DNA of 39,762 bases, from the IMG/VR virus record IMGVR_UViG_2541047839_000005; one strand, given 5' to 3'. A program made the position numbers and the translations under genes. Below the pieces are notes generated by a model, which ran no database searches, was not told the DNA's origin, and worked only from the letters and a program-made list of their open reading frames with translations. Shown piece after piece: positions 27,140-38,272 of the stretch; positions within the stretch are counted from its first letter, which is position 1; every line of letters starts with the position of its first letter. This DNA comes from a virus (taxonomy: Duplodnaviria; Heunggongvirae; Uroviricota; Caudoviricetes).

Positions 27140-27384
27140 ATGTCGATGTACACAACCGCCCAACTGCTGGCGGCAAATGAGCAGAAATTTAAGTTTGATC
27201 CGCTGTTTCTGCGTCTCTTTTTCCGTGAGAGCTATCCCTTCACCACGGAGAAAGTCTATCTCTCACAAATTCCTGGACTGGTAAACATGGCGCTGTACGT
27301 TTCGCCGATTGTTTCCGGTGAGGTTATCCGCTCCCGTGGCGGCTCCACCTCTGAATTTACGCCGGGATATGTCAAGCCGAAGCA
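27140..27384 (+). pseudogene. E: major capsid protein E, 5' fragment (codons 1 to about 82) truncated by island insertion
   Basis: MSMYTTAQLLAANEQKFKFDPLFLRLFFRESYPFTTEKVYLSQIPGLVNMALYVSPIVSGEVIRSRGGSTSEFTPGYVKPKH matches lambda E to the KPKH codons. The sequence then diverges into island DNA and stops at 27415. Confidence 0.85.
27375..27384 (+). repeat. attL core of the inserted island (AGCCGAAGCA)
   Basis: 10-bp sequence repeated at 38263..38272. Both copies sit exactly where identity to the lambda E gene ends and resumes. Confidence 0.6.
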
Positions 27385-27547
27385 CTTAGCATGGCTTTCT
27401 GAGGCTTTCGTGTAGTTGCTGGTTTTTACACTTAATCTTTTGATAATAAAGAATAAGTTTATCTGGTGCTTTCACTGAATTTTCCTCGTTATCTGTGTGT
27501 TGCAATCATCTCTGTATTGCAGCTTGTATTGCTTTTTGGGGCTAAAA

Positions 27548-28783
27548 ATGGCTGGCGAGAACAAACTGAGCGACAAAGCGCTTAAAGGATATCTGGGGAA
27601 ACCCAGAGAAAAGCAGATCACCATTGCTGATGGAAAGGGGCTTTCTATTCGTGTGAGTACTAAAGGGGCTGTGAGCTTTGTTTTCTTCTACAGGTTAGCA
27701 GGTGGCCGGGCTGCTCCGGTCTGGCTAACGTTGGGTAAATATCCTGATATGTCACTCAAACAGGCAAGGGAAAAGCGCGACGAGTGCCGTGGTTGGTTGG
27801 CTGACAAACGTGATCCGCGTATCCAGATTAAGATTCAGGCTGAAGAACGCTTAAAGCCGGTCACTGTGGAGGATGCACTAAATTACTGGTATGAAAATTA
27901 CTGTAAGGTGCGTCGTAAAACTCATGCTGTAACGCTTGGCAGATTTCGAAAGCATATCTTTCCCTATATCGGTCATTTGCCCGTAAATGACACTCACCTA
28001 TATGAATGGCTGGACTGTTTTGACCGAATTAAACGTAATGCACCAGTTATGGCGGCGTATGTTTTTTCTGACACTAAATTAGCTCTTCGTTTTTGTCGGG
28101 TACGCCAGTACGCGACGTGTGATGCTTTAAAGGATTTGCGCATGAGTGATGTGGGGCAGATTGCAGGTAAGCGGGATCGGGTTCTGGATGAAGCCGAACT
28201 CGGCCAGCTCTGGAAGGCAATTTTTGTCGAGCCTGATTTAAAACTAATGTCTGAATACACGCGAAAAATGTTTGTGCTTTGTACAGTATTTGGATGTCGA
28301 ATGAGTGAAGCCCGATTATCAGAATGGAGCGAATGGGATCTCGAAAGTTGGGTTTGGACTGTACCAAAAGATCACTCAAAAACTGGTGTTGAAATCGTCA
28401 GACCAGTACCTGAAATTCTACGACAGTGGGTAACGGATGTTCACGAAGAGACAAAACATACTGGTTATGTGCTGGGAAGTCTGCGAATTAGAGAAAGCGT
28501 AAGCAAGATTGGGGGGAAAATCGGTAAACGTTTGGGCCATGAAAAACAATGGTCACTACACGACCTTAGAAGAACGCTATCTACTCATCTAAGTGATCTC
28601 GGTGTTGAATTTTATGTAGTAGAACAACTGTTAGGCCATGCGCTACCTGGCGTGGCAGGTGTTTACAACCGGAGTAAGTTTATGGCTAAAAAACTGGATG
28701 CTCTGGAACTCTGGACTACATATCTCAATAGCATCGCAGGTGCTGATTCAAAAGTGATAATCCTCAAACAAAAGGTTGGTTAA
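27548..28783 (+). CDS. int: island integrase (P4-family tyrosine recombinase)
   Basis: About 411 aa from MAGENKLSDKALKGYLGKPREKQITIADGKGLSIRVSTKG (arm-binding N-terminal domain). C-terminal HDLRRTLSTHLSDLGVEFYVVEQLLGHALPGVAGVYNRS carries the catalytic motifs. Adjacent to the att junction. Confidence 0.85.
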   Translation: MAGENKLSDKALKGYLGKPREKQITIADGKGLSIRVSTKGAVSFVFFYRLAGGRAAPVWLTLGKYPDMSLKQAREKRDECRGWLADKRDPRIQIKIQAEERLKPVTVEDALNYWYENYCKVRRKTHAVTLGRFRKHIFPYIGHLPVNDTHLYEWLDCFDRIKRNAPVMAAYVFSDTKLALRFCRVRQYATCDALKDLRMSDVGQIAGKRDRVLDEAELGQLWKAIFVEPDLKLMSEYTRKMFVLCTVFGCRMSEARLSEWSEWDLESWVWTVPKDHSKTGVEIVRPVPEILRQWVTDVHEETKHTGYVLGSLRIRESVSKIGGKIGKRLGHEKQWSLHDLRRTLSTHLSDLGVEFYVVEQLLGHALPGVAGVYNRSKFMAKKLDALELWTTYLNSIAGADSKVIILKQKVG

Positions 28784-28784
28784 C

Positions 28785-29012
28785 ATGAAAAAAATGGCAA
28801 TTGTTGATAAAAAGGGTCTGGAGTACATTCCTAACATTGACCGAATGATCCGTGAGAAAGAATGTCGGGAGCTAACCACTCTTGCGAACAGCACACGCTG
28901 GAAGCTGGAGAAGGAAGGAAAATTTCCTAAGCGGATCAAGATTGGTTCCACTGCTGTTGCATATCGTCTTTCAGAAGTGCAGGCATGGATTCGAGGTGAG
29001 TGGGTAGTTTAA
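28785..29012 (+). CDS. alpA: AlpA-family transcriptional regulator / excisionase-like protein
   Basis: Small HTH protein immediately after int (IDRMIREKECRELTTLANSTRWKLEKEGKFPKRIKIGSTAVAYRLSEVQAWI), the usual int-alpA arrangement of P4-like elements and PICIs. Confidence 0.7.
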   Translation: MKKMAIVDKKGLEYIPNIDRMIREKECRELTTLANSTRWKLEKEGKFPKRIKIGSTAVAYRLSEVQAWIRGEWVV

Positions 29013-29037
29013 ATTATCTCAGAATAAAATATTATGA

Positions 29038-29073
29038 ATTACTGATTTGAGAATTTGTACTCAAATCAGTAAT
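29038..29073. terminator. bidirectional hairpin terminator between alpA and the island cargo gene
   Basis: Perfect inverted repeat (core ACTGATTTGAG / CTCAAATCAGT, extending to about 14 bp) with an 8-nt loop, flanked by T-rich sequence on the minus strand. Confidence 0.55.
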
Positions 29074-29081
29074 AACATTCT

Positions 29082-36497: not shown

Positions 36498-36514
36498 TGA
36501 AATTAGGGCCCGTT

Positions 36515-36600
36515 CTGGCTGGCGGGTCCTTTCCGGCGATCCAGAACGTTACGGGGCGGCGACCTCGCGGGTTTTCGCTATTTATGAGCATTTTTAGGGG
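36515..36600 (+). other. island cos site (cosQ-like plus canonical lambda cosN plus divergent cosB)
   Basis: GCGGGTCCTTTCCGGCGATCC...TTACG then GGGCGGCGACCT (36554..36565, identical to the lambda 12-nt cohesive end) then CGCGGGTTTTCGCTATTTATGA, after which similarity to lambda cosB is lost. Confidence 0.8.
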
Positions 36601-36713
36601 ACTGGTGGTGGTTTTGTTGTTCGCTATATCTGTATGAATAATAAGAGAAAAACACAATCAACACACCAACCTGAAACAGTAATTAAGTTGTGGTATCAAT
36701 GAAATTGCACCTG

Positions 36714-37241
36714 ATGAACAAAAAAAACATGGCAAAAAGTTGCCGTGTAAGCGCCACTGCGTTCGATAAGTGGGGAGTGATTCCCGTCGAGCGTAAGGGC
36801 CGCGAGGCGTTTTATGATGTCGCCAGTGTAATAGATAATCGGGTTAACAATGCAATCAGCCAGATTACAAACGAAACGGGCGAGATTGATGATGATGAAC
36901 TCCTACGAGTCAGGATCAGATTGCTGACAGCACAGGCAGAGGCGCAGGAGCTTAAAAACGAGCGCGAACGCGGCGACGTTATTGATACAGCGTTTTGTAT
37001 ATACGTGCTTTCAAAACTGGCGAGTCAGATTTCTTCAATCATGGACAGCCTGCCGCTTGCCATGACAAGGAAGTTTCCCGACATGAAGCCGTCTATGCTG
37101 GATGGACTGAAAAAAGAAGTTATCAGAGCCTGTAACGCATGCGCAAAACTTGACGAAAACATACCGCTGATGCTGTCCGATTATCTGATGGAAACTGCCG
37201 GAAACGTACCGGATAAGTTGCAGCTGAATAAAGATAAGTAA
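36714..37241 (+). CDS. island small terminase subunit (divergent Nu1 homologue)
   Basis: Collinear with Nu1 throughout (RLLTAQAEAQELKNERERGDVIDTAFCIYVLSKLASQISSIMDSLPLAMTRKFPDMKPSMLDGLKKEVIRACNACAKLDENIPLMLSDYL) but only partly identical. Directly downstream of the island cos, as nu1 is downstream of the prophage cos. Confidence 0.75.
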   Translation: MNKKNMAKSCRVSATAFDKWGVIPVERKGREAFYDVASVIDNRVNNAISQITNETGEIDDDELLRVRIRLLTAQAEAQELKNERERGDVIDTAFCIYVLSKLASQISSIMDSLPLAMTRKFPDMKPSMLDGLKKEVIRACNACAKLDENIPLMLSDYLMETAGNVPDKLQLNKDK

Positions 37242-37252
37242 CGTAGTACGCT

Positions 37253-37534
37253 ATGACTGAATCCGAAATACTGCGATTAATCCGCCGTGCTTGTGGAATC
37301 AGCAAGCAGCATGACGAACAGGCCACGCAGCCGGACAGCGTGATCGCCGAAAATTACGCGCGTGTTGTTGCTGATGTGATGCGCCGTGATGGTATTGAGC
37401 TTAACGGCGTGGATATGCGCGACATACGGATCAGATTCCTTGAGTTGCTGGCATACCGTCGCCGTTCTCAACAACGAAGGGAGAGCGCGAAAAACACTTA
37501 TCAGTGGAAGAAGCCGGAACGGTTGCGGCGGTAG
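37253..37534 (+). CDS. hypothetical protein
   Basis: 93-aa ORF immediately after the island terS. No recognised motif. Confidence 0.4.
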   Translation: MTESEILRLIRRACGISKQHDEQATQPDSVIAENYARVVADVMRRDGIELNGVDMRDIRIRFLELLAYRRRSQQRRESAKNTYQWKKPERLRR

Positions 37535-38262
37535 ATTCCTGATATTCAGGAAAACCACGAATCCGGGGGTTTTACTGGCGCGGTGTACACGGTGGAACGT
37601 ATAGCGTTACCTGACTTATTGCATTGTAAAAAGTTGAAAGGCACGGCCTGTAAGATGGGATGTTGTGAGTAGTTTAAAGCTACCCGCAAATTCTTTCGTT
37701 GTGCTGGCACAGGCGGTTAAACCGTCGGTAACTGGATAATCCCCACTGGGGGAAAAGCTGGCTACATCCCTCACATCTGAGGACTGATAACGCAAAATTG
37801 CGTTGGCTGGCAGAGTGCAAATTTGCACGATGGCCTAACCCATTGATTCTTTCGAAAACCCCCATTGGGGGAGAACGGGGGAATAAACCTGACTCATTGA
37901 TTTTTCCACAATCCTTAATTTGAGGAAGCTGGATAGTTGCACTACCCAAAAAGTGCAGTACCCACATAGCTGCTTAATAGCGTTTATTTTTTCCGCACAC
38001 CTCAAATCTGAGAAGGCCGGAATGATGACATGGCAGGATTATGATTCCTTGATTTCAAGGAGTCCTCCAGTGTGAAAATGAAATTATCTGGGCTGGTGGG
38101 TGAGTTGCTGATCTGCAACTCGGCTATGAAACTTAATAATCGAACAGCATGTAAATTCATTTCTGTGTATTGCAGCATGTATTGCAACATAGTCATTCTG
38201 GTAGAGATTATGCTCTATTTTTCCTCTTATATCATTCACATACTTACGTCATTGACTCATGT

Positions 38263-38272
38263 AGCCGAAGCA
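38263..38272 (+). repeat. attR core of the inserted island (AGCCGAAGCA)
   Basis: Second copy of the 10-bp core. The lambda E sequence resumes from here (CCG AAG CAT GAG GTG AAT CCG CAG ATG ACC). Confidence 0.6.

Follow-up and report, generated by a model that had tools for sequence, protein, structure and literature searches.

Helper-embedded phage-inducible chromosomal islands (HE-PICIs) were described by Tommasini, Mageeney & Williams (NAR Genomics and Bioinformatics 2023; PMC10111431). Their element Eco567.11capE is an 11-kb island within the lambda-type capsid gene of Escherichia coli NRG857c; it has a capsid gene of its own, and a 10-bp identity block is present at attL and attR. That capsid gene differs at the att position, which would prevent self-integration (PMC10111431). 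When NRG857c is treated with mitomycin C, the composite first leaves as a unit and replicates, after which precise excision of the satellite follows, as recorded by quantitative polymerase chain reaction and by deep-sequencing read counts of attB and attP (PMC10111431). The same survey assigned 201 elements to the capsid-gene target, named E:Phage_cap_E:80, and a further 290 to 13 other late-gene sites (PMC10111431). Here we analyse a 39,762-base stretch of Caudoviricetes DNA (the window; IMG/VR record IMGVR_UViG_2541047839_000005), in which a lambda-like helper prophage is interrupted between positions 27385 and 38272. We conclude with high confidence that this interruption is an HE-PICI of the E:Phage_cap_E:80 group, that is, a satellite whose P4-type integrase recombines attP with a short sequence in codons 79-82 of the lambda-type capsid gene E. 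Concept, site, core and repeats alike were already described in that 2023 paper (PMC10111431), and the island in the window is thus an independent rediscovery and one more confirmed instance.

The evidence that carries this assignment begins at the two edges of the insertion. The 10-mer AGCCGAAGCA is present in just two copies in the window, at 27375-27384 (attL) and 38263-38272 (attR), both on the + strand and exactly matched (0.09 copies are expected in shuffles). When the junctions are read against lambda gene E, these copies are the exact points at which E homology ends and restarts; they occupy nucleotides 236-245 of E, in codons K79-P80-K81-H82 of the motif V-K-P-K-H. To the left lies the 5' fragment of the helper gene (27140-27384, + strand, codons 1-82), which in strain GN06489, where the locus is identical, is annotated as a 'major capsid protein' pseudogene (partial), and to the right the 3' fragment (38273-39053, + strand), which by its lambda E homology runs from the third base of codon 82 to the stop. 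Joining 27140-27384 to 38273-39053 in silico creates a 1026-nt open reading frame (ORF) for a protein of 341 aa, 98% identical to lambda E, with 3 amino-acid substitutions. The distance between the core copies is 10,888 bp, and cutting out that DNA in silico gives back E exactly. At attL, the E reading frame enters island DNA and meets a stop at 27415 after 9 foreign codons, so that E is disrupted until excision. No substitute E sequence is carried in attP; this and the short identity block common to attL and attR are among the properties by which an HE-PICI is recognised. The split E and the key island genes are co-oriented, all on the + strand. The island also has an E-like major capsid gene of its own (34705-35751, + strand; product 43% identical to lambda E), which reads ATGAAGCCGAAAAGCAGC, i.e. 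AAGCCGAAAAGCA, at the corresponding place and therefore lacks the 10-mer. An earlier note, made from the letters of the window alone, had located the direct repeat at the homology break-points within the V-K-P-K-H codons and had described the island's E homologue as devoid of the core; the copy count and the comparison with lambda E bear out both statements. The surrounding helper is a lambda-like prophage in which Nu1, A, W, B, C and D precede the split E (Nu1 through D being 97% identical to lambda), with FI, FII and Z downstream.

The integrase gene lies beside attL. Our gene calls combine Pfam and PHROG scans with RefSeq/PGAP names for the island of strain GN06489, to which the window island is 100% identical. 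The first island gene (27548-28783, + strand), which starts 163 bp inside attL, encodes a P4-type tyrosine integrase of 411 aa (phrog_1) that comprises an arm-binding domain (Arm-DNA-bind_3, PF13356, E=3.7e-19), a SAM-like domain and a catalytic domain (PF00589, E=1e-16). It is followed by a gene for an AlpA-family excisionase/regulator (28785-29012, + strand; PF05930, E=2.8e-15). On either side of this arrangement, the ends of the island carry a repeated motif, TGTATTGC, which occurs 6 times in the window against 1.45 copies expected; none of 100 shuffles reached 6. Four of these six copies form two co-oriented tandem pairs with a spacing of 12 bp, at 27513/27525 and 38166/38178, and an independent repeat search returned the same regions as a 24-nt direct repeat of 92% identity (27509-27532 and 38162-38185). 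In the P' arm (27385-27547, + strand), the doubled motif tcTGTATTGCagctTGTATTGCt (27511-27533) starts 131.5 bp past the core centre and ends 15 bp ahead of the int start codon; in the P arm, the doubled motif tgTGTATTGCagcaTGTATTGCa (38164-38186, + strand) ends 81.5 bp ahead of the core centre. The published doubled motif, tgTGTATTGCantgTGTATTGCa, is positioned upstream of the attP centre by 81 +/- 2 bp and downstream of it by 132 +/- 2 bp (PMC10111431), a geometry that the window's doubled motifs fit at both arms.

Another key property of this site is its constancy. The integrase together with the left arm was found in 176 of 5,426 complete E. coli genomes; all 175 full-length cases adjoin a partial capsid gene, and the complete left junction is present in 173 genomes. 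The integrase gene in the window is at least 95% identical at the nucleotide level to those at the same site in the 175 genomes, and the island as a whole is 100% identical in three other genomes. Exact attL sequences were recovered from 28 IMG/VR contigs, in all of which the doubled motif stands at an identical offset; codon-degenerate patterns extended the IMG/VR set to 64 attL and 77 attR loci. In Kosakonia and Cedecea, islands whose integrases are 88% and 83% identical in amino acid sequence interrupt an E homologue at these codons too, and their repeats are arranged in the same way. Together with the P4-type domain set, these identities suggest indirectly that the integrase may belong to the HE-PICI subclade specific for E:Phage_cap_E:80. 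A search for relatives among GTDB genomes with the single integrase sequence returned three loci only, too few to reproduce the 14-site survey. The earlier note had pointed out repeated motifs just inside both island ends, as would suit integrase arm-binding sites, and had argued for site-specific integration into a protein-coding target of the helper. The motifs are indeed there, as tandem TGTATTGC pairs at fixed distances and enriched over shuffles, and the proposed mode of integration is supported by the integrase and AlpA genes beside attL and by a site that is constant in 175 genomes and in other genera.

The likeness to Eco567.11capE and its group extends to the target codons, the 10-bp block, the orientation and a size of about 11 kb, to the order int-alpA, variable zone, primase/SSB, and E-like plus D-like genes, and to the doubled TGTATTGC at about 81 and 132 bp; in both elements the capsid gene carried by the island departs from the target sequence at the att position. 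We propose the following course of events. Late transcription of the helper, antiterminated by Q, would read through the E fragment into int and alpA; no terminator-like site was found on the + strand between 27385 and 27548, in a promoter/terminator scan whose counts were no higher than in shuffles. Int and AlpA, probably with the four TGTATTGC sites on both arms, would build an intasome and excise the island, and helper capsid protein would be made only after the exit of the island restores E. The freed island would replicate from its own primase and iterons. Packaging would start from the island cos and be carried out by the helper large terminase (TerL), recruited through the island's Nu1-like small terminase (TerS), and the E-like and D-like proteins of the island may be present in the heads.

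Several points weigh against an active satellite of this kind. The excised attP junction was found neither in IMG/VR (with the reconstructed sequence) nor in metagenome contigs (with a degenerate pattern), so that public contigs hold no independent evidence of a free or packaged form. The helper portal gene B (23841-25442) has an in-frame TGA at codon 157 (24309-24311) in place of the TGG for Trp157 of lambda. Furthermore, many of the published helpers look truncated or degraded, and no virions were recovered (PMC10111431). The portal codon and the state of the published helpers lend weight to another reading, namely that the att features are real while the copy in the window is a relic, a composite that no longer gives rise to particles and leaves the island stranded; we regard that as a distinct possibility, although not the favoured one. 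The portal TGA is common to the window, to GN06489 with its identical island, where it is annotated as an 'internal stop', and to the IMG/VR locus L027. The helper cosN (21007-21018) reads GGGCGGAAGGCG instead of the lambda form GGGCGGCGACCT, which the embedded island has; 5 of the 12 cohesive-end bases differ. Taken with the nonsense codon, this means that the composite may be unable to make particles by itself, and the helper is probably defective for head assembly. On the other hand, where the portal region of an occupied helper could be read, codon 157 is TGG in 10 of 12 cases, which makes the portal defect specific to one lineage. All island genes, both att sites and the island cos are intact, and the identity of the island in three other genomes also speaks against a decayed element. 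Int and AlpA suffice for excision, and a portal could come from a second lambdoid phage.

A further alternative concerns what the repeats are for: TGTATTGC may bind AlpA or another factor, or form part of an int promoter/operator, rather than serve as integrase arm sites. The authors of PMC10111431 explicitly allow for binding by AlpA, by the arm domains of Int or by some unknown protein. In favour of this alternative, the P' doubled motif ends 15 bp ahead of the int start codon, and two AlpA-family proteins are encoded by the island. Nevertheless, the integrase has a recognisable arm-binding domain, the four co-oriented half-sites fit an integrase tetramer, the spacing from motif to core is constant in all 28 IMG/VR loci and in three genera, and the motif is confined to this integrase clade (PMC10111431). 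With these facts in view we consider this alternative unlikely, and hold that the four TGTATTGC sites probably take part in the Int intasome as putative arm sites. We also noted a third, degenerate copy of the arm motif, TGTGTTGC, which has one mismatch and lies at 27496-27503 in the P' arm, 17 bp ahead of the doubled motif; it is absent from the published description (PMC10111431). This copy is present in 25 of the 28 IMG/VR attL loci, its counterparts being TGCGTTGC in Kosakonia and CGCGTTGC in Cedecea, and it overlaps a TTGCAA that is a possible -35 element for int.

That the 10-bp repeat is a transposase target-site duplication, with which a direct repeat around an insertion is formally compatible, has next to no probability and can be set aside: Pfam/PHROG scans and the repeat search detected no transposase and no terminal inverted repeats in the island, 175 genomes and three genera have the insertion at one and the same point, the block varies in step with the wobble positions of the target codons, and measurements on the sister element showed precise excision to attB and attP in single copy (PMC10111431). 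Two other classes of satellite were also rejected. A capsid-forming PICI would have a complete head module (portal, protease, capsid, connectors and both terminase subunits) and borrow nothing but tails from its helper; only capsid, decoration and small-terminase homologues were found here. The capsid-size genes psu, delta and sid and the alpha primase-helicase of P4-like satellites were undetected in Pfam/PHROG scans, and the helper is lambda-like, not P2-type. Like satellite phage P4, the island encodes an arm-binding integrase of a related family as well as a D5-type primase, and it depends on structural genes of its helper. In contrast, P4 targets tRNA-Leu, exploits a P2 helper and carries psu, delta and sid, whereas the window island carries E-like, D-like and Nu1-like genes.

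Comparison of occupied and unoccupied targets in IMG/VR allowed us to narrow down the crossover point, with codon-degenerate search patterns that by design reveal synonymous core variants only. In the Cedecea island, attL and attR are identical over just 7 bp, AACCAAA, which correspond to positions 1-7 of the block. All 64 attL loci have G at position 8, but A stands there in 9 of 77 attR loci and in 12 of 80 unoccupied targets; by this criterion positions 8-10 act like arm sequence on the right-hand side of the crossover. The strand-exchange overlap is probably the first 7 bp of the block, 27375-27381 and 38263-38269. By eye, inverted repeats of core type (CTCATG/CATGAG) surround the block in attR, but we saw no consistent pattern in attP and attB. 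The main core alleles of unoccupied E targets are AGCCGAAGCA (29 of 80) and AACCCAAGCA (28 of 80), and under these patterns the alleles vary only at codon wobble positions.

Contigs that contain both junctions add a further facet. The core is identical at the two ends in 37 of 52 such contigs and differs in the other 15. Positions 2 and 5 are jointly mismatched in nine of the 52 attL/attR pairs, with one more pair mismatched at position 5; the nine double mismatches split by direction into 5 and 4, and for two of these nine islands (L184 and L020) a single locus contains both ends, separated by 11.0 kb. The core alleles are unlinked to the sequence type of the adjacent P arm. This pattern fits integration over a mismatched overlap followed by segregation of the heteroduplex by replication, an explanation that we offer as a lead only, because recombination between two composites would give an identical picture.

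The right end of the island differs from that of most of its relatives at the E site. The island cos site (36522-36594, + strand) includes a cosN, GGGCGGCGACCT at 36554-36565, that is identical to lambda; the cos stretch common to island and helper is 73 nt only, and the sequence to its right is unrelated to lambda cosB. Downstream lies a gene for a full-length Nu1-like small terminase (36699-37241, + strand; phrog_57, E=8e-52), then a conserved gene of phrog_1561 (37253-37534, + strand; PHROG). The Nu1-like protein is 38% identical to helper Nu1: its N-terminal DNA-binding part is divergent and its C-terminal part conserved, and the alignment continues to the last residue of the helper protein. 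The type element, in contrast, has no terS and 258 bp of cos in common with its helper (PMC10111431). A typical E-site island, that of APEC E14033, likewise has a lambda-like cosB and no terS, and of the roughly 175 islands at the E site in complete E. coli genomes, we found only 5 with the cos/TerS right end. The same cos-TerS-phrog_1561 module is common in HE-PICIs embedded in the portal gene (B:Phage_portal_2), as in strain EC93 (L253, 11098-11640), where it is about 90% identical. These portal-embedded islands have the same four-zone layout as the window island, but belong to another integrase subclade, have another att core, and target the helper portal gene instead of the capsid gene. 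The identity of about 90% with the EC93 module points to modular exchange, and suggests that late-zone modules have been exchanged between islands with different integrases.

Gram-negative PICIs of the EcCICFT073 type (Fillol-Salom 2019; reviewed in PMC9026076) also have the int-alpA-primase layout, a lambda-type cosQ/cosN followed by a non-lambda cosB, and the gene for a winged-helix protein at the Nu1 position, in their case the packaging redirector Rpp. They differ in being integrated in chromosomal genes and acting only in trans. Rpp is 135-153 aa long and has no TerL-binding C-terminus, whereas the window protein aligns with Nu1 to the last residues; given that Rpp is shorter and without this end, the island protein looks like a complete small terminase. 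Separately, the cosN variant of the helper, GGGCGGAAGGCG, is rare, being present at 3 of the 31 helper-type cos sites among the loci compared, and a third variant, GGGCGTCAGGCG, was seen in the island of APEC E14033 (L155, 12670-12681). When we join the core and the right end in one proposal, it is that the integrase may tolerate wobble-position mismatches (positions 2 and 5) in the 7-bp overlap, and that the island took its cos/TerS module from portal-site islands, so that its Nu1 paralogue could recruit the helper large terminase directly, whereas Rpp works through the helper small terminase. We advance this combination tentatively and think it doubtful as a whole.

The remaining genes complete the four ordered zones of an HE-PICI (integration, Bro/variable, replication and late): int-alpA; a variable zone; DUF4222, primase, iterons and SSB; and E-like, D-like, second AlpA, cos and TerS. 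The variable zone (29082-30845, mixed strands), described from the annotation of the identical GN06489 island, contains a predicted membrane ORF (29082-29618, - strand), a YlcI/YnfO-like gene (29969-30271, - strand) and a gene for an Icd-like cell-division inhibitor (30480-30845, + strand). Pfam/PHROG scans of this zone did not find a BRO-N domain. The replication zone (31454-34494, + strand), defined by Pfam/PHROG matches and repeats, contains a DUF4222 gene (31454-31753), a D5_N/DUF5906 primase gene (31750-33501) and an SSB gene (34045-34494). Directly after the primase gene is an iteron cluster of direct and inverted GTCTACC/ATCTACC repeats (33510-33745), which is probably the island replication origin. 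Between the E-like gene and cos are a D-like head decoration gene (35761-36102, + strand), whose product is 38% identical to helper D, and the gene for the second AlpA-family regulator (36114-36497, + strand; Pfam/PHROG). Rfam at gathering thresholds gave no match in the window. Below threshold, the stretch immediately upstream of the Icd-like gene (30413-30485, - strand) matches the SymR antitoxin RNA; at 35 bits against a gathering value of 61 (E=0.001), it may be due to chance. The C4/isrK immunity RNAs mentioned in PMC10111431 were not seen in this copy by Rfam scans, in which the symR-like match was the only one at E<=1.

The helper contains several accessory genes. A BstA-like abortive-infection protein (12882-13826; PADLOC E=4e-121) is encoded in a low-GC segment (10.1-13.9 kb) that also has genes for a large serine recombinase (10737-12263) and for an emrE-like transporter of the SMR type (10094-10480). 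We considered this segment as a second nested element and set it aside; it resembles the emrE-ybcK arrangement of DLP12-type prophages. At the position of lambda rexAB, beside a cI-like repressor gene (6467-7216), lies a gene for a DUF7946/DUF7947 protein (5537-6400, - strand); with a weak PADLOC match to PDC-S42 (E=1.5e-4), it could be a defence gene. Two low-GC genes between the Q antiterminator and the holin (15848-18239, - strand) are in moron position and encode a 404-aa protein without a family match and a 287-aa homologue of the nucleoid-associated protein NA37. Another degraded helper is found in EC93, where the capsid gene E of the prophage with the portal-embedded island (L253, 15220-16245) is annotated with an internal stop.

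Beyond PMC10111431, this locus and its relatives provide small additions: a probable crossover within the first 7 bp of the block, core variation at wobble positions only together with mismatched attL/attR pairs, an own cos with a Nu1-like TerS, and a helper with a portal nonsense codon and an unusual cosN. The arrangement is related in logic to the regulated gene integrity elements (skin, SPbeta, phage regulatory switches), in which likewise an interrupting element is excised precisely and at a set time to restore a gene. Unlike skin and SPbeta, the gene interrupted here is part of a different mobile element, and it is the satellite, not the cell, that benefits from the timing. The locus is an instructive example of one mobile element that parasitises another with an integrase aimed at a protein-coding site. 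By sitting inside an essential late gene of its helper, the satellite gains control in cis, as no helper capsids can be made until it leaves, and for as long as it stays embedded it is passively replicated and transcribed along with the helper. Tolerance of mismatches in the overlap, if true, would let such a satellite track the synonymous drift of its protein-coding target.

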